From the NCBI GenBank assembly GCA_051362555.1, contig CM120649.1, positions 7,006,001 through 7,070,000 on the forward strand: 64,000 bases of DNA. The letters run 5' to 3'. The notes under the pieces are model-generated. The model did no database searches, had not been told where the DNA came from, and was given only the letters and a program-made list of their open reading frames with translations. The stretch is from Lingula anatina. Lineage: Eukaryota > Animalia > Brachiopoda. The translations under genes were made by a program, and so were the position numbers. Every line of letters begins with the position of its first letter. Position 1 is the stretch's first letter. Positions 2,115 to 58,675 of this stretch are shown piece by piece.

Positions 2115-5100
2115 ATGTCAGACAGTTCATCAGCAACGATAGCAGATAGCACATTGAAGGACTCGCAGTCATCATCGCAGATGTATCAGAGCTCCTTGGC
2201 TATGACTGAAAAAGTGCTCGGAGAGCAGGAATATGAAACACAATTCTTTGGTTTTACCCCGAAGTCCTTTACTGATGGAGGTACGATGGTTTGTTGTCCA
2301 GATATATAATATGTATCGACAATTTAAGAAGCAGTTATGTTAGTGTAGTGGGCATGTTTATTAACTTATTTGCAACATGGTTATTACATGAATCTTTTTC
2401 TTTAACTTGTCAAAAGTAAAACTTAAATGGTTCTTAGTTGACATAGCAGTACATCTGATTCATTGCAAATATTTGTTACTTGCAGAAATAAAAACTGTTC
2501 ATATGAGATTGATATTTTCACAGTAAATACACTGTAAACAACTCACTGAAGTATAAATTAAATATTACCACCAAAATGGCATTTATCGCAATTATTTTGG
2601 AATCTGTGCTTGCCATCAGACCACATGGACCTTCATAGATGGCTATATCTCCATAATAATCCTGCAAGTTTACAAAAAAACTTTTTTAGGAAAAAAAAAA
2701 CATGGACTTATTTTGAATATCAAAATGGATTTTTTTTTTTTTTTTTGCCAAATAGAATTTGTTTTCCCTCTTATTATGCATTTTGATTATATGCATCTTT
2801 CCAAATACTCTGATGCAAAGCATGTGAACCACTTGGGTCAACTCCCTCATTGTTCTCAAACTGGCAAATCATTGCTCTTGAAAATTAAAGCACAAGGAAT
2901 GTATTAGGCCAATTTTAACTTGTAGTTCCATTAATGACTTTACTGTTATATGTACTGTATAAATGTCATTGTTTGTATTTTGTTTTTCAGTTTATAATGC
3001 TGTGAATGAATACCTCACAGACTGTCTGGAAGTGGTAGAGAAATACATCATTCAAGAGGTATATTTATTTACTTATTTTATTTGATATCCATGTGATGAC
3101 AACAGTGTCAGTGTACTAATGAGACAGGAACCTTTCTTCATATAATTTTTGAAAATCAACACAACTAAGTTAGGGGCGGATTTAGGCCATCTTCTGGGTC
3201 TTCTGGAAGAAGGTCAGATTTTCAAGTTTACATTGATGAGTACCTTTTTTTTCTGTTGGAAAACAGTCAAAAATGGAGAATAGATCTACAAAGATTTAGA
3301 AGACTGTCAGAAAATATCTCTGGATCCTCCCCTGTTAGTTTCTTATTATAGTGGAGGATCTATGATGGCTAAGAAGAGGGAAAGAGTTTTTGCCTCCCTC
3401 CTATAAATACTCCCTGTATAATAAAGTTTCAACATTTCAGTTCAGTGCCGTCATCCCAGCAGAAACAGTGAGAGAATGTACACAGCAGTTGCTGCCTGTG
3501 TTTGTGAAGACTTTTGACAAAGCATTTGATAAGTTAGAGGTGCAGTTGGTTTTTAGACTTTGAAAGAGCATTTGATATTATTTATGTGCGTTTTGTTTGT
3601 ACAGTGCATTTGGTTTAGAGATTATTCTGACAGTAGGGAGTTTGATACATGGCACATAAGCATATAAGACCCCATTCCATCCAATAATAGTTTATCTATA
3701 ACATTACATTTACATGTTTGAAAAATAATTATTAATTCGCACAATTACATCCACTCTTAAATCTTTAACTCTGATTAAAGTGTCCCCTCTTAGAGGAATA
3801 TATTTATATTCTTTATATTTTTTGTGTGTACATTCAACAGCACCATTTTCGACTTTCCATTTATGTATGATGGCTTTAAATGGGAAATCTTTAAATCATC
3901 TCTTTTCAGAATTATCTTCTCTGTAACATATTTCACATTCCCAACAATGTGTTACTTCCCGAAGACAAGCCCCAAGAGTTTCAGTACACAGAGCTGGAGC
4001 AGGAAGAGATCGACAGGGACCTGGAGACACTGAGACAGAAGATCAGAAATGTAAAGTCCTATTTACACTGGATGGCGTCCTTTCTGAGTCCCCATTTGAG
4101 AGTTTAAAAAAATACATGCTGACAATTGGCTGATCATTGAGCATTCATTTTGCAACCAAAGCGATGCTTGTGCCTCCTTTCTACGACCACGGCAATGCCA
4201 GTTTCATGGTCGCACAAAGGACGCAGAAAGGATGCTGCTGAGTGTAAGGGGGGTTTAAGGGGCTGTTTTTGGCCAAATTTCAGAAAATTTTCAATTGTTT
4301 ACGTATATTCTCTTATATATCCGCCCTACTCCCTGTTTACTCACAAATAGTGGTTTTTACCTGAGGATGACATTATATATATAATATAATCAATATCTTT
4401 TGCAACACATATGTTGAACATTTTGTATTGGAAGGTTCATAGAGAGCATTTACATCGAGAAGAGCCGAGGTCTAGCAAGGCTGAGACCTAAATATGGCGG
4501 ACCTTCACGAAAGGAAGACTGCGTAATCCTTTAATGGTCTCTCAATGACATTCATTGACATCCATATTTAGGTCTCGACCTTGCTAGACCTTGGCTCTTT
4601 GCGATGTGAATGCTCCCATAGTTTTTTATCTTTGATAGATTTGATAGTTTTGGATGTCAAGTGAAAACCTTGGGTTTCATTTTAGAGACACAGTGTATAT
4701 ATGTTGGGGAATTATTTATGAAAGTAAATGAGTAGCCTCAAAGTGTGTTCTCTAGGAACTGTTAAATCTACCAACAAACAAGGTTCTGCTTGCATGTTTC
4801 TGTTTGTGAGAGGACACACCGGACAGAAAAAAGTGATTGCAATCTGAATCTGGGTCTCCTGATATATTTGAAGTCATTTTTATTTTGTTATTTACAGGTC
4901 TGCTCACAGGGAGCACTCTCTAGATTGAAATGAGTATTTTAATCCTCTTTTCAGGCCAAGTATGTAAATGCCTGTTTGGAGCAGGAATTGAAGGACATAG
5001 CCACAGTTCAGGAACAGTACGACAAGATGCTGACTCTGCTGGAAAGGCTGGAAAAGACGACTATGTCTGCAGGAGGTAGAAGGAACAATCTCTCTCTCTC

Positions 5101-5754
5101 TTTCTCTTTCTCTCCCTCTCTGCCATCATTGAAATTATATGATGAAGAAATTTGCAATATATTGACAGGTTTTTGTGATTTTGCGGATGGAATAATTTGA
5201 TTGGTTATTTTACTGGGATAGGAGCTGTCCAAATACCCCTCCCCCTTCATACATGTACATGTACACACAGACACCTGCAGGCACATGCACACACACACAC
5301 ACACACACACAGTTGTCTCTGGTTATGGACTTATTCTGTTACTGTTCTCTTCAGCCCATTTTTTTTAGAACTTAGCCCAGGGGCAAGAATGTTCCAGTAA
5401 TATCCTACTATTATCAGTGATGAGCTTTGTGTATTGGATCTTGATATTTATTTTCAAATTTGTAAAAGAAATGTTCATACTTACCATTGTAGCCATCGTT
5501 TATACTGTTTCTATGATCAATTCCTTAATTTTCAGTTCCTGGCTTGAAGGAAAGTTTGGTATTCACTTGTGACAAGGTTCGAGCACTGAACACAAGAATA
5601 CAGGAACTAAAACCGCTTTCGCCACCACGCTTTAAGGTGATGGAATACATATTTTTATTTATAGTTATGTAAATACATTGCTTTGTCAGTTTATAATAAT
5701 ATTTTATAAAACAATTCAGTATTTGTATTCATTTGTTTTTTTAATTAGGTCTAA
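2115..5754 (+). CDS. MIS12: Kinetochore protein Mis12 homolog, 7 coding exons, about 233 aa
   Basis: Exons 2115-2280, 2991-3058, 3441-3539, 3910-4050, 4955-5075, 5536-5636, 5749-5754; all GT-AG and frame-consistent (702 nt). Contains the Mis12 signature EYETQFFGFTPKSF..VYNAVNEY, then FDKLE-YLLCNIFHIPNNVLLPED and a C-terminal coiled coil. The last 6-nt exon is less certain; read-through of the last intron would stop at 5672. Confidence 0.88.
3172..3334. mobile_element. Non-autonomous DNA element with AGGGGCGGAT-type termini
   Basis: Begins AGGGGCGGATTTAGG and ends CTGGATCCTCCCCTG (imperfect inverted termini). Similar ends occur at 19385-19621. Confidence 0.5.
4440..4620. mobile_element. MITE with about 60-bp imperfect terminal inverted repeats, in MIS12 intron 4
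   Basis: TAGAGAGCATTTACATCG..GGTCTAGCAAGG..GAGACCTAAATATGG is mirrored by CCATATTTAGGTCTC..CCTTGCTAGACC..CGATGTGAATGCTCCCATA. Confidence 0.8.
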
Positions 5755-7173: not shown

Positions 7174-7952
7174 ATGGCGACTGATCACGATCGCGGCGAT
7201 TGTAGCTGGATCCCAATCGTCGATTTAAAGGCGTTTGACATCACAAAAGAAGAAAATGAAGTCGACAGAAAAGATCTGGAAAAGCTTGCTAATGATGTGT
7301 TCAAAGCTTTCAGCACCATAGGATTTGTTTATGTCAAAAATCACGGAATTCCCCAAGATCAGGTTAGCGAGCACGCTGCCGGCTGTTCAGCGGTTAAAGG
7401 CAGTGGCTTATGCAATTTGACGAAAGTGCCGGTGTTTCTGTAATCATTTTACGTAACTGTTAATTGTTGTATTTTGTTGCGAAGTTGAGTTTGATGTTTT
7501 CGCATTTAAATCATAACTAACAGTGTCAAGCTTATATAAGTTATAATTAGATGACCTTACAGAGTGGACGAGGGCAAGAACATTGGGGGGGGGGGGGGGG
7601 GGGGGTAATCGATTTATGTTGCCTCCATTTTATCATATCAAGGAGCGGCAGGTGTGAGAAAATCAGATGAACTTGCAGTCGGAGGACAGTTGGCTATCAG
7701 TAACGTTGAGATATACGAAGAGTTTATCTTGGTTCAAGGCTTTCGAGAGGTGAAGGGGGAAAGGGGGGGCGAGCTGCATGTACGTGCGCCTGTCAGCGTC
7801 TGCCTCTCTGAAAATGAGTCGGATTATGGAATGATTATTTTGTGATATCTGAAGGCTATACTTAACAAATGTATTGATTAATTAATTTATTTATTCATTC
7901 CATTCATTTATTTGTTTGTTTGTCTATTTATTTATTTATAATAATAATAATA

Positions 7953-8011
<59 letters not shown>

Positions 8012-10496
8012 ATCATGTGTTTTGCATTTTGGTGATTTACATTGGTACTATTTGTTATGTTTTGTTTACTCTTAATTTTCATTTTTAGATGAATAAACCT
8101 TTACAGTTAACCATTATTATTCATTCACTTACATAAAATTACATCTTTTACCCCAGAAAATTGTCCTGATGATTATTGTTATATATCAAAATGTATTGTT
8201 TCAAAGCCATGTTGGTAGGAGCACTGTTATTATCCAAAACTCACGAAAAAAAATATTTTTTTCAAAGGGTTTCATTCCTCTGTATTTTCAGATTGACAAT
8301 ATATTCAGGTTGTCAGATGAATTTTTTGCACAACCACAAGAGACCAAAGATAAATTCGTCCGTCCAATGTCTGATCCTGCTGCAATTGGTTACATTCCAA
8401 TTGGAAGAGAATAGTAAGTTTTTTTTTTATACAATACAGACACTGAACCAGTGATATCACTTACACACATACACAAAAAGGCCATACACAATCATTTGAT
8501 CCACGGACACACTAGTCCACGAATCAAGTATGATCAAGTATGACAATTAATTCCTGCCTAGCTCCCACGCTTTCCGTCCCAGCAGGGGCAGAGCAATAAA
8601 TTCTCAGCACACTGTCAAGTGGGTCACGCCATTTTAGATTTGCAGACAAGTTAGTCCATGGATCAAGTGTTTGTGTATGCAGCCAATCAGCTACCTTTCC
8701 ACTCCTTACAAGTATCTGCAGTCACTTATTCTATAGATTTATGTAGAACTATTGATACTTTTTCCTCACGGAATATTGGAGAGAATTATAATGAAGTTTA
8801 CTTCGGATAGGACACATACAAGTATGTAACATGGGTTACTGGGAGCTGCCGATGTGACCGAAAATTCCATTAATTGCTAGCTGGAAGAACATTTTCTTTG
8901 AATGACTGTGTTTTATATTTTCATGGCATTTTAGAGTATTTTCAATCTTAGTATGTCTTCATAGTTGTAGTGTTTATAGTCACAGTTTGATTTCACAATA
9001 GCTTTGAAATATGAATAAAAAACTCAAAAATGAACATTTTTCACTTTTATTGCATAGCTATTGTAAATATGAGTATTATCTATAGCTAATGAATCTATTT
9101 ACACACATCATAGTTTTTTATCGAAACAGAATGTTCTGAACTTGTTTCTAGTTTGTCAGATGATGTAAAAATTCATTTGGACAGAAATATTTAAATGTTG
9201 ATATATATTTCAATTTGAATTAGAAACACTTTGAAAATGTTGTGTTCTAAACATTTTGCAAGCTCCTATTTTCATGGTTTTGCTCTAGTTTTGATGCCAA
9301 CAAACCTGCTGACCTCAAAGAATCATTTGACGCTGTCCCAGGAAGTGAATATTCTCAGGTAAGACAAAAAAAAGCCAGATAAAAGTTTATTTGCAGTCAA
9401 GATTTAGAGATATAGATAAGGATTTTATTGTTAATTTTGCGTCTGAAAAGCAATGCTATAACATGCATACATAGTAAAACACGAAGAAAGAAAGATAAAT
9501 TTCAATATTACATGATTTATTGGCTGAGTTTTATTTTCAGTACTGGCCAAACATACCAAACTTTGAGGAGGATGTTGTTAAGTTCCACAGAACGTGTGCC
9601 AAGCTGGGCTTACGATTGCTCAAACTGATTGGAATGGGATTAGGACTGGAGGTAATGTGTATATATTTAGGTAGACCACATCTGTCTTGAAAAGTTCAAA
9701 CTTGTTGGGGGAGGATATGAAGTGTGTACTTTGTAATGCTCTGCTGGATCTTATTGTGAGGCTTTTGAAAGCAGAAAAGAAGTGGACAAGAAGAAGTGTT
9801 CATTTCCTGTCAGAATGGAGTCTTGTACACGTATTCAATCAAGTTGGGCAAACCAAATTTAATAAAACTCAATATTTTCTTTATTTCTTGGCTCACTAAA
9901 GTCTTGTTTCTATTAAAGTTGGGTTCACCAAACATTGTGATTTAGGAAGCCTAATAGAATATAATGGCTAACCTCAAGTACAGTTCTGGTATATTAAAAA
10001 CAACATAGGGGGTGCGTACTTAAAGATGTCAGACATACTCACTAGTCATGACTCCATTTAAGTTAGGTTGACCTTACTTAGTGAATCCTATCTCAGTTGG
10101 CTCTTTCATTATGATAAAATGGCTATAGGAAGCCTGTTGAATGGAAATGTTGGAGTCCGCAAAACTTCTGAAAGTCTGATATCAATGTAAGTGCCCAGTA
10201 TTATAGTTTTTACTATAAAAATAATTAAAATATTATTTTTTTGCCTTTGAACTGGATGAATCATAATTTACATTCTAATGACTTGAATGTGGACTTAGTT
10301 TACAAACATCTGTTACTTTTCAATAACTATGGAGCCAAATATTTTCATTCCTTTAGAAGTTGTACATGTACAATCCAATATCAGAAAAGAAAATCCAATC
10401 TAAAGAGATGCTGAGTGTTTTGATTGAAATACCCATTGTCACAAATATGTGACATTTTATAAGTCATATAGTAGTTGTGTACAACAACATTCACAG

Positions 10497-10527
<31 letters not shown>

Positions 10528-13500
10528 GTTAAAAAGATCAGAGAGAAAAGATAAAGTGAGAGATGAATGTGAATAATGGACAATTTTATAAGAAATGGGA
10601 TTTCAAAATGAAATTGAATTATGTTATGGGAATACTATATATATAGTAAATGCCATGTATCCATTTTTCTTATATTTGCCTTTGGCCGTCCTTAGCAAAT
10701 GAGATGTACACTAGTTGAAAAAAATGATTCTGACTTCATGTATTTTTTTTTTTAAGGGAAGTTTTTCTTTCTTTCTAGGTCTGCATATTTTTTTGTTAAA
10801 GAACACCAAAAGTGAAAGTACAACAGTGAAAGTTTTCTTTTTCAGGACTCTGAATTTTTTGTAAAAGCACATGAAAAGATCAGTTCAAGAGCCAGCAATA
10901 ACACAGCCATTTTGCGTCTTCTGCACTATCCGCCTGTGAAGGACGGTGAAGGTACAGGGAATTATGGGAAGACTAATGAGTATGGTGGGCTATCACTGAA
11001 AAGTAACACTTTTAAGGCATACAATGTGTATAAGACCTTTATACAGCTGAAAATAATTTTCCTGTTTTCAGGTTTTATCTTTGATTCATTCTTGTATTAG
11101 AGATGGAAACTGGGGAATGCTACTTTTGACAATATACCATGAAAAATTAAGAGGGGAAAAGGATTGAAATTTCGCTGAAAAAAATCTATATATTTTTTTT
11201 TATTTTGATGTTTGAATGTCTATCACACATTGTGTGCCTTTAGAAGAGGAATTTCAATTTTTTTGCCCAAAAAGTGGTTTTGAACCAGCTGTAACTGACC
11301 ATGCATGTATTTGATAATGATGATATAAATTTGGGAGATAGGTGGTCGTATATAACTAATATTTCTTTGGTGTTTTTAGTGACTGCTTTCCCATTGTGTC
11401 TAGCACTTTATGCTGTGGCATTACAAAAAACGTTCTTTTAGTTGTAGCTAGAAGTCTTTTTTTTTTTTTTTTTGTCTTGCTTACTAAGTACTGTTTGGTG
11501 GTTTTCAGTTCTGGCAATGCCATTCAAAATGTACATGAAAGAGTCACACATAGAGCAGCTGCATGCTATTAATTTACTATTTTTGTTTTTATTTTTTATT
11601 AGGGCTTAATCTTTAGGTTCTCTAACATCTTTTTATACTCCCTGTTATTTTTGTTTTAGGTGTGTTGCTCTATTAATATGCATGTGTTGAAGAATATCAC
11701 ATATTGCACTGCTTACCTTTTTCATTAAAAATGTGGGTTTTGTTATATTTGTGTGCTGTCTTATTTTCGTAGGACCAAAATGAGTTGCTTATGTGTCATA
11801 CACATCTTGAAAATTGGCGTAATAACAGCACAACAAGTTTGCGGCTTTTGACCTATCCTGCACGTACTGAAGAAGAAGGTAGCAAGGGCTTGAAAGCAGG
11901 CTTTGAAAATCGCTTCACTATAGAAAGCTCACCATTTTATCAAAAAATAACTGCCATGAAAAAGTTTCTAGTCTATGTCATATACACTACCCCCATGCAA
12001 AATGTCAGTTAATTAAAAAGATTGGTCAGTAGTACTCAATGAAATTTATTTGGTTACTGGCCACTGTTTCTAATTTGGCCCATTCTTTGACCCTGTTGAC
12101 CTGAAGGACCAGTTAGCATGCTAAAAAGGTCTTGGCAGTGTATAAGTTTTATTAAAATCAGTTGAAACCTGGAAAAATCAAATTGTAAATTGCAGGTGCT
12201 TTATATGCAGCCTGGCTCACTTGAAGCTGTTGGTTGTCAGAATCATTTATATTTTAGCATAGTATGAGTTTCATTAAAATCACTTATAAGTACAGGAGCA
12301 ATCAAATTGGCAATTGTAAGTGCTTTATATGCAGCCTGGCTTACTTTGCACTGTTGGTTGTCGCAGTTACGTATGTGCTTGGCAAAATATGTATAGACTA
12401 ATGGTGTGCTTTGGGTTACTTGGAACAAGGTTCTTCCAGCTCTTGATCACATGATTATATAACTTGTTGTTATCCTATTTTTTGTTAAAGAAAGCTTCCA
12501 TATGCTAGATAGCCGAGGAGGTTTTGAAGGGCTCATTTACATTGAAACTATTGGTCTAAGTAGGTCAATCTGTTAAACTGATTGCAGGTGAGAGTCTCTT
12601 AGGAGTTGATCTACAGAGGCAGATGTTTTCAATGAGAATGAACCCAAACCTATTTCATATTTCTACATTCCTATTATCTCTCTTATTTACACCTTTTGGT
12701 GATCATTTAATGTAGCCATTTTTAGATATGCGTCTATATAACAGTTTTCTCAAGTGTTATGTGTGATTTTAACAATAAGGAGAATAACACAACATTTTCT
12801 GAGTGACATTTATTTCTTTTGTTTTCAGACTTTCTGCCAGACCAGACACGCTGTGGTGAACACACGGATTACGGCTCCATGACTCTGCTCTTCCAGGATG
12901 ACACTGGAGGCCTGGAGGTAATTGTGTTGGGTGTGACATTGTGCGTGTTGTGTTAGGTGTGACAATTTGTCAGCTGGGGCAGTGTGTTAGGTGTGACAAT
13001 GTGAAATGGTAACCTTCTGTAATATTGTTGGGACAGTGTGTTGGGTGTGAGAGTGTGCCACCTTTGTTAGATGTGACAGTGTGCCAGCTGAGACATTTTG
13101 TTAGGTGTGATAATATGTCAGTTGGGACAGTGTGTTAGGTGTGACACTTTGCCAGCTGGGACAATGTGTTAGATGTGACAATGTCAGCTAGGGCAATGTG
13201 TTAGGTGTGACAATGTGTTAACTGGAGCAGTGTGTTAGGTGTGACAACTTGTCAGTTGGGACAGTGTGTTGGGTGTGACAAGTGTTAGTTGGAACATTGT
13301 GTTACGTATGACAATATGTCAGTATGTCAATTGTCATATAGTGACATTTTGTAATATAGTGACACTGTGAAATGGTAACCTTCTGTAATATAATATAATA
13401 TCACTTTGTGATACAGTGACACTGATGTAGTGACAATGTGATATAATGACAGTTTGTTAGGTGTGACAATGTGTCAGCTGCATCTGACAATACTTTCAAA

Positions 13501-15896
13501 CTTCACCAGGTCCAGACAGTGAACGGGGAGTTCAAGCCAGCCACGCCCATACCAGGCACTGTGGTGGTCAACATAGCCGACATGATGCAGAGGTGGACAG
13601 CGGATGGACTCAAGTCCACTGTGAGTACATGTCCACTACACTGGTGTTTTCTAAGGCCTTCTTCCCTGTTAGTGTTGACTGACTAATTGTCTTTTGATTG
13701 CGTGCTGTCTACTACTCTGCTTTGACTAAGTGTTTTGGTGCCTCAGTCATCCACCGTATTGTATATGAGGGTGGCACTTACAAATAGAAATTTTAGTGTT
13801 CTTGCATTGGTTTTGATGTATATTTTAGTTTAACAGCTAATTGTGTCTTAAGTAAACAGTGGTTTTTGGATTGTTAAATTCATTGATATGGTTATGTTTT
13901 ATTGTGTCTTGATGATCTGAACCAGAGAAATTAGTTCTTAAAGTTTGGAAATGACGTTCTGATCAACAAGGTACATTTTTTTTCTTTACTGGACTCACTC
14001 TATCTTTGTCTCTTTACTCGAGCATTTTAAAAGTAATCTCATTTTTTAATTTACTTTGTTTTGCATCAGTGGTATGTCTAATTTTCCACTGCTCAAAAAA
14101 TGATTTTTATGCACCTTTAAATTTCCAAAAGAAACCAAAAAAAAAAACCATACAAAGCACATGGACTGTCCATACACTCACGGGAATACCAAACAGTGAC
14201 TTTTGTAACCTAGGTTTTTGACCAGAATTTTGTACTTGAATGAGATTGATTTAAAAAAAAAGCTCATTTCTTCACTATTTCATGACATTGGAGTGAGTCC
14301 TGTTTTATGTTGTGCTCTTCTTAATTGGCTTTAAGAACAGGTTTAACAAAAGAAAAAAAATGTTTTTGAACATATTTCAGAATGTAGACTCTTGATATGA
14401 ATCTCATATTAGTAATAATAGTTTTTAATATTTAATCCCTTTAAACCTTGCTATTTGTAATGTTTGCTTACCATTCATCATCCACTGCCAAAGGTTCACA
14501 AGCATTGTGTGCCAGCTTCCTTTTCAAATTTCCGTGCAATCTCACTTCACACCTCTGACTTTCAGTGATTAAGTTTTACTATAATTATCACAAAATATTA
14601 GATTGGTATACATTAATTATGGCACATGCCCTTCTATTAAGCCACCTAATCTTCACACACATTGTCAGAGTCTGATAAGTCTGGTAAGCTGAACCATGGT
14701 AGTTTGACAATGGAAAAAACTGGCAAACATCAAATCTTAAGCTCATATTAGATTCACAGAGTATGACAGAGGTTTACCTGGTTGTAATGAAGCGTCTACA
14801 TCCTGATGTAAAAACTGAAAACATTTTTTTGTCAAAACTGTTCTGTAAATGGCCTTGACCTTTCAGTGTTGTGTTCTTCCTTTTTCTAGCCCCACCGTGT
14901 TGTACCCTCCAATAAGAGGAAGGCACGTAGAAGTGTAATCTATTTTATCGACCCTGATCGCTCTACGATTGTGAGGCCCCTAGATGGGTCTAACAAATAC
15001 CCTCCCATCTCTTATGTTAACTACCTATCACAGAGATTTGCTGACACGGGAATGCTTGAAGGAAACGAAGTCATTAACACAGCTGCATAAGTTTGCATGT
15101 AAGATTTTTTTTGTTGTTTTGTCTTAAAAAATCCTGAATGTAAGCTTAATTTGCTTTTTATGGCTTTGTTGCGCTTTGTTACTGTTGCTTCGTAAGCATT
15201 CCATTTGATGGTTGAGGCATTTGTGATTTTTTCTCAACAATTTTGCAGGGATTTTTGAAAAATTATTTATTTATCAAATTATAAATTTGTTTATACTTTC
15301 ACTTGCTTCTGTTTTGGAGCATGAAAAAAACATCACTTTTAGCTTAGTTCCTAGCTTTTTCTTTCCCCTTAACTAAATTTTAATCTGCCCCTTGGGTTTT
15401 TATGAGTTGATACTGTACTCACTGGTAGAACCAGATTTTTCATTATCACTGTACTCACTGGGAGAACCAGATTTTTCATTATCACTGTACTCACTGGGAG
15501 AACCAGATTTTTCTAAAATGGCACAGAGAGTTTTGTCAGATTTGTGTTATCACCATTGTAATTTTGTAAAAATTATAGTTAAATTTTTTTGTTCTTTTTT
15601 AAAGATATTCACAGTAGTAAACAAAATCCTACATGTTTTGCCTGTACTTGACCCACTGACCTTAACCAACTGACCTTCACCCACTGACCTTGACCTTTTC
15701 ATTGTAGTGTCACAGAGTGATCCCCCATAGGAAGACCAAACCAAGGCGTTCTATGGCATTTTTCATTGATCCTGATGGGGACGCAGTGATTGCGCCTTTG
15801 GACAATTCCAAAAAGTATCCACCAATAAAGTTTATAGACTACTTCAACAAACGTTATGAAGAAACAGGAATGACTCGGGAGGAACATATACAGTAG
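7174..15896 (+). CDS. 2-oxoglutarate/Fe(II)-dependent dioxygenase (DIOX_N + 2OG-FeII_Oxy, IPNS/ACC-oxidase-like fold), about 328-332 aa, with duplicated alternative exons
   Basis: Constant exons 7174-7362, 8292-8413, 9289-9358, 9541-9651, 12829-12917, 13510-13620. Alternative exon 5 is 10846-10951 or 11773-11878; the terminal exon is 14890-15090 or 15708-15896. Motifs: IPIVDL, GFVYVKNHGI, DLKESF, LRLLHYPP, CGEHTDYGSMTLLFQD..GGLEV (HxD), VVNIADMMQRWT...KST-xHRV (distal His), RRS (RxS). Confidence 0.92.
7954..8010. repeat. (TTA)n microsatellite
   Basis: Perfect trinucleotide run. Confidence 0.95.
8480..8685. mobile_element. MITE-like dispersed repeat (second copy inverted at about 54868-55056)
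   Basis: Ends TTGATCCACGGAC and GTCCATGGATCAA. The core GTCCCAGCAGGGGCAGAGCAAT..TCTCAGCAC..TCAAGTGGGT is the reverse complement of sequence at about 54918-54967. Confidence 0.7.
10761..10815 (+). pseudogene. Decayed partial copy of the exon 5A acceptor and 5' end
   Basis: Pyrimidine tract plus AG ending at 10778. In the +1 frame it reads SAYFFVKEHQK* versus DSEFFVKAHEK in exon 5A. Confidence 0.6.
10846..10951 (+). CDS. Dioxygenase alternative exon 5A (DSEFFVKAHEKISSRASNNTAILRLLHYPPVKDGE)
   Basis: TTTTTCAG acceptor, G|GTACAG donor, 106 nt, phase 0 in and phase 1 out, open reading frame. Confidence 0.9.
11773..11878 (+). CDS. Dioxygenase alternative exon 5B (DQNELLMCHTHLENWRNNSTTSLRLLTYPARTEEE)
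   Basis: TTTTCGTAG acceptor, G|GTAGCA donor, 106 nt, same phases as 5A, open frame, aligns to 5A without gaps. Confidence 0.85.
12920..13490. repeat. Degenerate minisatellite (about 33-bp unit, GTGTGTTAGGTGTGACAATGTGTCAGCTGGGACA) filling dioxygenase intron 6
   Basis: TGTTAGGTGTGACA recurs many times across the intron. Confidence 0.85.
14890..15090 (+). CDS. Dioxygenase alternative terminal exon 8A (PHRVVPSNKRKARRSVIYFIDPD...NTAA*)
   Basis: TTTTTCTAG acceptor, phase 0, 66 codons plus TAA. Carries HRV, RRS, FIDPD and KYPPI. Confidence 0.88.
   Translation, partial: PHRVVPSNKRKARRSVIYFIDPDRSTIVRPLDGSNKYPPISYVNYLSQRFADTGMLEGNEVINTAA
15412..15512. repeat. 36-bp tandem repeat, about 3 copies, between exons 8A and 8B
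   Basis: ACTGTACTCACTGG(G/T)AGAACCAGATTTTTCATTATC repeated. Confidence 0.9.
15708..15896 (+). CDS. Dioxygenase alternative terminal exon 8B (CHRVIPHRKTKPRRSMAFFIDPD...EHIQ*)
   Basis: TTTTCATTGTAG acceptor, phase 0, 62 codons plus TAG. Same motifs as 8A; an AATAAA lies downstream at about 16778. Confidence 0.88.
   Translation, partial: CHRVIPHRKTKPRRSMAFFIDPDGDAVIAPLDNSKKYPPIKFIDYFNKRYEETGMTREEHIQ

Positions 15897-20530: not shown

Positions 20531-20540
<10 letters not shown>
20100..20540 (+). promoter_or_regulatory. CpG-rich DGK promoter/5' UTR with ETS-like and YY1-like motifs
   Basis: CACTTCCT at about 20119, CGGAAGT at about 20512, and CAAGATGGCG overlapping the ATG at 20531. These are motif matches only. 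Confidence 0.4.

Positions 20541-58675
<38,135 letters not shown>

Follow-up and report, generated by a model that had tools for sequence, protein, structure and literature searches.

The brachiopod Lingula anatina possesses a 2OG-Fe(II) oxygenase gene in which two exons, exon 5 and the last coding exon, are present in duplicate. The structure of this gene and the use of exon 5A, its extended form 5A-long, exon 8A and exon 8B were observed directly. The gene is located in a window of 64,000 nucleotides, i.e., the whole stretch of DNA that was analyzed. The explanation that we favor, with modest confidence, is that two old tandem exon duplications took place in the catalytic core, that 8A and 8B are spliced in sample-dependent proportions, and that 5A is the default form of exon 5, with 5B as a tightly repressed alternative for a tissue or stage outside the sampled ones.

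Exon 1, used as a query, retrieves Lingula anatina RefSeq proteins named 'UPF0676 protein C1494.01' with 98% identity (XP_013406537, 538, 540 and 541; XP_013412357, 359 and 360), in which DIOX_N and 2OG-FeII_Oxy domains are present. These entries represent two copies of the oxygenase gene. For the same gene, RefSeq isoform X1 combines 5A-long with 8A, isoform X2 combines 5A-long with 8B, isoform X3 has 5A and 8A, and isoform X4 has 5B and 8A; in the collection searched, the 5B isoform exists for only one of the two copies. The models name the isoforms without comment on duplication, usage or paralog history, and they differ from the window in a few amino acids, the window being another allele or assembly. 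Every intron of the gene is of the GT-AG type, and its exons are the following.

7174..7362, + strand: exon 1, coding from the ATG onward, with the beginning of DIOX_N (Pfam PF14226, E 3e-08; spliced to exon 2 in 4 of 4 runs)
8292..8413, + strand: exon 2, 122 nt (junction reads in 4 of 4 runs; tblastn with the RefSeq isoforms)
9289..9358, + strand: exon 3, 70 nt (junction reads; AG/GT borders)
9541..9651, + strand: exon 4, 111 nt, phase 0 at its end (junction reads; borders)
10846..10951, + strand: exon 5A, 106 nt, the copy that is used, with R188, L190 and Y192 (216 reads in and 179 out, 8 runs)
10952..10984, + strand: extension of 5A, 33 nt in frame up to a second donor, adding 11 amino acids in a loop (68 junction reads in 8 of 8 runs; RefSeq isoforms X1 and X2)
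11773..11878, + strand: exon 5B, 106 nt, an intact copy for which no spliced read was seen (RefSeq isoform X4, 33/35 amino acids; paralogs, 26-27/35)
12829..12917, + strand: exon 6, 89 nt, with the HxD iron ligands (Pfam PF03171; junction reads)
13510..13620, + strand: exon 7, 111 nt (Pfam PF03171; junction reads)
14890..15098, + strand: exon 8A, copy of the last coding exon, 66 amino acids, stop at 15088-15090, then spliced to 8B (126 reads from exon 7, 88 reads on to 8B)
15708..15896, + strand: exon 8B, coding part, 62 amino acids and stop, depth running on past 16300 (74 reads from exon 7; RefSeq isoform X2)

The encoded protein has the features of a DIOX_N-type 2OG-Fe(II) oxygenase: PF14226 and PF03171, an HxD...H triad, an RxS motif and a predicted jelly-roll fold. 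Its closest solved relative is thymine-7-hydroxylase from Neurospora (T7H, PDB 5C3P), both by sequence (E 1e-43) and in a Foldseek comparison of folds (E 5e-28, TM 0.77, 34% identity). In the available text of PMC4787775, T7H residues Arg190, Leu192, Tyr194, His271, Val273, Arg286, Ser288 and Phe292 are described as binding iron, 2-oxoglutarate or substrate. Counted along the T7H alignment, in which the numbering is that of the paper plus 2, the strand encoded by exon 5 holds the equivalents of the first three (R188, L190 and Y192 in Lingula), and exon 8 holds those of the remaining five. Both copies of exon 5 and both copies of exon 8 retain all eight of these residues. T7H and the Lingula protein share the iron triad, the 2-oxoglutarate ligands and the equivalents of F292 and Y217, but Asn87 of T7H aligns to Ala and Asn294 to Asp. 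From the T7H substrate residue set (N87, E122, R190, Y217, F292, N294), R, Y and F are retained, and the E122 region aligns poorly. As the kept residues are near-invariant in 108 homologs, they do not single out thymine as the substrate; the T7H class is defined by oxidation of thymine, 5hmU and 5fU, and the Lingula protein resembles it in sequence and predicted fold. The AlphaFold model of the 5B+8A isoform has a mean pLDDT of 90.2, with 81-96 per 10-residue block over exon 5. This model and that of 5A-long+8B, predicted from 115-row alignments, both reach a mean pLDDT of 90, from which it follows only that these isoforms are compatible with the fold; the 11-amino-acid loop from the 5A extension has a low pLDDT. 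In the mechanism that we propose, the exon swaps would tune substrate preference and leave catalysis untouched.

Exon usage was determined in eight of nine Lingula RNA runs (X1-X7 and X9, without X8) from three studies, which were picked by species label, the tissue and stage of the samples not being given. A total of 369 million read pairs is reported for Lingula RNA-seq in PMC4595640. Reads were taken at 90% likeness, covering approximately 6% of X1-X6 and 25-30% of X7 and X9. Junctions were listed from three reads up, with four weaker joints falling below listing in the set of X1, X4, X7 and X9.

The pair that switches in RNA is 8A/8B, a second duplicated pair that is absent from the preliminary description of this DNA. 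The two copies are identical at 28 of 62 amino acids and both match the exon-8 profile with E < 1e-18. Summed over the eight runs, 126 junction reads connect exon 7 to 8A, 74 connect exon 7 to 8B and 88 connect 8A to 8B; the 8A counts include reads with a variant first codon at the joint, taken as a synonymous allele. The 8A:8B ratio is 31:1, 36:6 and 47:2 in X1-X3 (pooled 114:9), 0:27 and 2:20 in X4-X5 (pooled 2:47), 2:6 and 7:11 in X7 and X9 (pooled 9:17), and 1:1 in X6, which has eight 8A-to-8B reads as well. For X1-X3 compared to X4-X5, Fisher's test gives p 2e-30, the groups having been chosen after seeing the data and the reads being treated as independent. The shift from sample to sample could be due to genotype or library rather than to tissue.

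Exon 8A is a cassette with its own stop that exchanges the C-terminus of the protein; from the end of this stop to the last junction there are 8 nt. In mammals, a zone of about 50 nt before the last junction escapes decay. The 8A stop would likewise escape nonsense-mediated decay. When 8A is included, the protein ends in 8A and 8B is 3′ UTR; when 8A is skipped, 8B is coding. The pair provides homologous alternative C-termini that are both found in spliced RNA, as in a C-terminal tandem duplicated exon substitution. In the transcript the two copies are not mutually exclusive, as the 88 reads joining both illustrate, and exclusion exists at the protein level only, via the 8A stop. Since 8A is spliced together with 5A in these runs, it is not tied to 5B. 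The idea that 8B is the ancestral-like copy was rejected, as 108 homologs split 57 to 49 with 2 ties.

The preliminary description centered on the exon 5 pair. Both exons are indeed 106 nt long, are preceded by AG, start with GAC, end in GAAG|GTA and contain no stop in frame 0. They align without gaps with 11/35 amino acids and 51/106 nucleotides identical; the amino acid pattern given for them is a single dot too short between D and H, a trivial slip. The sequence features of a mutually exclusive exon cluster are hence found in 5A/5B, i.e., adjoining homologs of equal length and frame with valid splice sites. The two strands of the window together contain 60 stop-free AG|106 nt|GT segments; scored against 5A, 5B reaches 48 and the next best of these segments -6. 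Among 16,404 stop-free 35-codon stretches, 5A itself is the only one to rank above 5B, and the stretch that follows 5B (48) scores 17. Because this score is so far above those of other segments, the likeness of 5A and 5B is not due to chance. Both copies probably measure 106 nt simply because the parent exon did. Per-exon profile searches of the window returned the known exons only; neither a further copy of exon 5 or exon 8, beyond the two of each, nor a tandem paralog was found. The 5B donor equals the 5A donor in strength, with 5/9 consensus matches and a U1 duplex of -6.2 kcal/mol each. Before the acceptor, the zone free of AG spans 78 nt for 5B and 88 nt for 8B, compared to 10-30 nt for the other exons, which may point to distant branch points and regulated acceptors.

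5A is closer than 5B to 106 of 115 non-Lingula homologs (the non-Lingula rows in the best 120 of 579 hits) and is by this count the conservative copy of exon 5. A profile built from non-Lingula homologs only gives a strong match to 5A (E 3e-10) and a weak one to 5B (E 0.046). Outside Lingula, no 5B-like segment was found among 260 other proteins, where the best score was 58, compared to 143-144 for the Lingula paralogs. A 50%-representative search yielded no close non-Lingula relative, its next hit having only 43-47% identity, and a short-protein search returned one fragment of unrelated type.

In RNA, 5A is the copy that is used. A total of 216 reads connect exon 4 to 5A (50, 48, 64, 17, 7, 2, 11 and 17 in runs X1-X7 and X9, respectively), and 247 leave 5A for exon 6, 179 from the donor of the 106-nt exon and 68 from the second donor after 10984, which produces a 139-nt exon of unchanged phase. 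The share of the long donor is 33/154, 12/62 and 23/31 reads in the three studies; its high share in the third study may be explained by genotype, the reads being mostly 90-99% like the window. Among the junctions listed in the eight runs, none leads into or out of 5B, none connects 5A to 5B and none skips exon 5. As junctions are listed only from three reads, depth is the better guide to 5B use. The depth of the 5B bin is zero in X1, X2, X3, X5, X7 and X9; it amounts to 0.13 in X4, where an intronic patch adjoins the bin, and to 2.57 in X6. In the six runs with zero depth, 5B is found 0 times against 197 exon-4 junctions, which gives a one-sided 95% bound of about 1.5%. The depth in X6 was considered as 5B inclusion and rejected, since the flanking intron bins are alike (1.21 and 2.44) and no junction is listed.

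The proposal that 5A and 5B alternate as a true mutually exclusive pair is therefore upheld in part. 5B is a homologous duplicate with a coding history, given its 26-27/35 amino acids in common with exon 5 of the paralogs and its presence in RefSeq isoform X4. The alternation itself and the mutual exclusion were not borne out, as, of the junctions by which they were to be recognized, those listed involve 5A only. Reads joining 10951 to 11773 had been expected to be scarce and none was listed, which is uninformative while 5B itself is unseen in the eight runs. A single copy of exon 5 is seen in use in the sampled RNA, and the other is likely a rarely used or fading alternative of a known type. 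RefSeq alternative models such as isoform X4 need transcript support.

In its strong form, the preliminary description held that 5A and 5B alternate routinely and that the reading frame enforces their exclusivity. The arithmetic is correct: skipping both exons leads to a stop at 12880 and including both leads to a stop at 11781. These stops lie 146-504 nt before the last junction, so decay could remove mis-spliced exon-5 products, and no such junction is listed. It was also right that steric exclusion is ruled out by the spacing, the intron between 5A and 5B measuring 821 nt, or 788 nt from the long 5A donor. Neither was an RNA-structure alternative found: no docking or loop-out duplex exceeded shuffles in seven region pairs, the best duplex in the six pairs around exon 5 being matched by 4 of 30 simple dinucleotide-block shuffles. 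The inverted repeats that were listed consist for the most part of poly-T/poly-A or match at 72-85%, and no role is evident for them. Routine alternation under frame control is nevertheless very improbable. With 5B below about 1.5% in six runs, repression must act before decay could. As 5B is nearly absent even where it would be in frame, decay is a backstop and not the selector, and the absence of skipped and double products fits decay and silencing of 5B equally well. In 377 human clusters (60%), the lengths are not multiples of three, and reads joining both exons were reported for only 83 (22%) of them; for most clusters of such lengths the authors infer other control (PMC5740500, available text). 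In the explanation that we favor, skipping or double inclusion of exon 5 would trigger nonsense-mediated decay as a clean-up, and splicing factors would set the choice of 5B, as neither a steric block nor a docking helix was found.

A second explanation is that 5B was once a working alternative, became redundant after daughter genes had fixed a 5B-type enzyme, and is now silent and starting to decay, the live variation consisting of 8A/8B and the two 5A donors. We regard this as possible, if less than probable. It agrees with the lack of 5B junctions in the lists of all eight runs and with the 5B-type exon being supplied by all four paralog proteins. Between the window and the RefSeq allele, 2/35 amino acids differ in 5B, compared to 0/35 in 5A and 3/297 elsewhere (Fisher p 0.09), which may be taken as a hint of relaxed constraint. 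Among the listed read variants that were checked, 5/5 in 5A, 7/7 in 8A and 7/8 in 8B are synonymous, and 5B had no reads. However, the 5B frame is open in two assemblies, its AG and GT sites are intact in the window, RefSeq isoform X4 models the exon, and its identity to the paralogs is not below that of the constitutive exons. Simulated neutral decay with 20% nucleotide change left the exon intact in 19% of draws and retained at least 26/35 amino acids in 6%; with 10% change these values were 43% and 80%, so that the simulation is not decisive without a synonymous distance.

The history of both pairs can be traced through four paralog proteins of Lingula, probably from three genes, two of the proteins being isoforms of one model. 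In all four, exon 5 is of the 5B type and the last exon is of the 8A type. Their exon 5 is identical to 5B at 26-27/35 amino acids (74-77%) and to 5A at 11-12/35, and their last exon shares 30-38/66 amino acids with 8A. For exons 1-4, 6 and 7 taken together, an identity of 77-79% was computed with two of the paralogs. 5B is thus as close to the paralogs as the constitutive exons are, as expected if it stayed constrained, and since 5A and 5B are only 31% identical, the paralogs split off after these two had diverged. In trees, 5B (RefSeq allele) groups with the paralogs on a long stem (support 97/93), 8A groups with the paralogs (99/97), and 8A and 8B group together with the paralogs (97/93). 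These trees were built with 16 named animal homologs from 108 non-Lingula rows; the alignments have 33 and 57 columns, and no mixture model was applied. AU tests reject a clade of 5A and 5B (p 0.016) and a clade of 8A and 8B (p 0.013), whereas 5A as the sister of the 5B group is neither shown nor rejected (p 0.30). The trees, the AU tests on these short alignments and the per-exon identities agree that the exon duplications are older than the gene duplication. The simplest history would be that of two exon duplications followed by whole-gene duplication, after which the daughters would have fixed the pairing of 5B with 8A.

The grouping of 5B and 8A with the paralogs and not with their neighbors 5A and 8B, together with the unsettled position of 5A, would also follow if 5B, and perhaps 8A, had been acquired from a paralog through gene conversion or exon shuffling instead of being born in place. 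This is improbable, as a late copy should be nearer to its donor than the other exons are, and neither 5B nor 8A is. Moreover, the identity of the constitutive exons to two paralogs far exceeds that between 5A and 5B. A further idea, rather unlikely and put forward tentatively, extends the favored history: the gene would be an intermediate, still surviving, in the origin of a new enzyme; 5B and 8A would have co-evolved as a new substrate pocket in one alternatively spliced gene and this pairing would have been exported to the daughters, with the parent still splicing up to six active-site combinations and 5B serving one cell type or stage.

Several other observations concern the paralogs and their relatives. 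The V-N-I before the A/G-D-x-M motif in exon 7 is changed to V-I-L in all four paralog proteins (P0003, P0004, P0005 and P0011), three of which change the following A or D, and this would be consistent with a shifted function. P0005 and P0011, the RefSeq isoforms of one paralog model, are identical as far as exon 5 but not in exons 6-8, as would be seen if that paralog had a duplicated 3′ block or merged two tandem genes. In amphioxus (P0014, P0026 and P0035), isoforms X1 and X4 of one model differ in the N-terminal half and are the same in the rest, and another amphioxus protein shares the last part only; this may represent swapping of duplicated blocks elsewhere in animals or models that merge tandem genes. 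Directly past the exon 6 donor, a minisatellite with a period of 17 nt (12923-13478) draws reads from elsewhere. Paralog model P0003 continues into minisatellite-like sequence after its own exon 6, which suggests that the minisatellite may predate the gene duplication.

The window contains additional genes and repeats. A multi-exon gene on the + strand (2115-5640) ends about 1.5 kb upstream of the oxygenase gene; its first exon has a weak Mis12 match (Pfam E 0.15, below the cut-off), with a motif that we take to be that of the kinetochore protein MIS12. Downstream, a long gene on the + strand (20531-55700) contains a diacylglycerol kinase catalytic piece at 36911-37228 (E 1e-07) and a SAM domain at 55427-55576 (E 4e-12), and is likely a type II diacylglycerol kinase gene, of which the open reading frame at 20531 is, as a guess, the first exon. 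The intron between 8A and 8B has short tandem repeats at 15412-15519 and 15642-15695 (3 x 36 nt and 3 x 14 nt), and the 14-nt unit places several branch-point-like motifs before the 8B acceptor. In X2 and X3, six reads join positions 11580 and 14127 on opposite strands; they probably stem from a repeat located elsewhere. Long open frames of repeated units at 42087-44128 and 38648-40140 are probably intronic tandem repeats.

The gene is a new case of tandem-duplicated-exon substitution, the isoforms of which were already annotated in RefSeq. As this kind is well known, the splicing itself is not surprising. Among the papers listed in literature searches, none deals with this oxygenase gene or with the substrate of the animal family to which it belongs, and supplements could hold expression tables for the gene. 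The locus offers a compact test case, being a small soluble enzyme with two duplicated exons that each give active-site strands. One of the swaps, 8A/8B, changes sharply between samples, and the daughter genes seem to have fixed one pairing. With six isoforms and three paralog genes, the question arises whether alternative splicing could be a trial ground for new specificity before gene duplication.

Known tandem duplicated exon substitutions, as described in the available text of PMC9741552 and PMC5740500, share with the Lingula gene adjoining homologous exons of equal length and phase with one default exon, internal and C-terminal swaps within one gene, and ligand residues that are kept while their neighbors change. 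Human clusters mostly consist of one ubiquitous and one regulated exon (PMC5740500, same text). In comparison, 5A/5B resembles these systems in sequence features only, as reads show 5A alone. The Lingula exon 8A is a stop-bearing cassette spliced to 8B rather than an alternative polyadenylated last exon. Also, both Lingula swaps are inside the catalytic fold, whereas swapped regions in human tend to avoid ligand sites (PMC9741552, available text). Paralogs that keep one of two duplicated exons are described there for PGM1/PGM5, for CACNA1C/D versus CACNA1F/S and for FYN versus FGR/SRC/YES1/FRK, and subfunctionalization of splice forms is treated as a general process in the accessible part of PMC4417111. 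In those cases as in Lingula, a parent has both copies and daughters are annotated with one per pair. The Lingula case differs from them, so far as these texts go, in that the four paralog proteins, known from proteins alone, share one and the same pairing of a 5B-type with an 8A-type exon, with no complementary daughter found among them.
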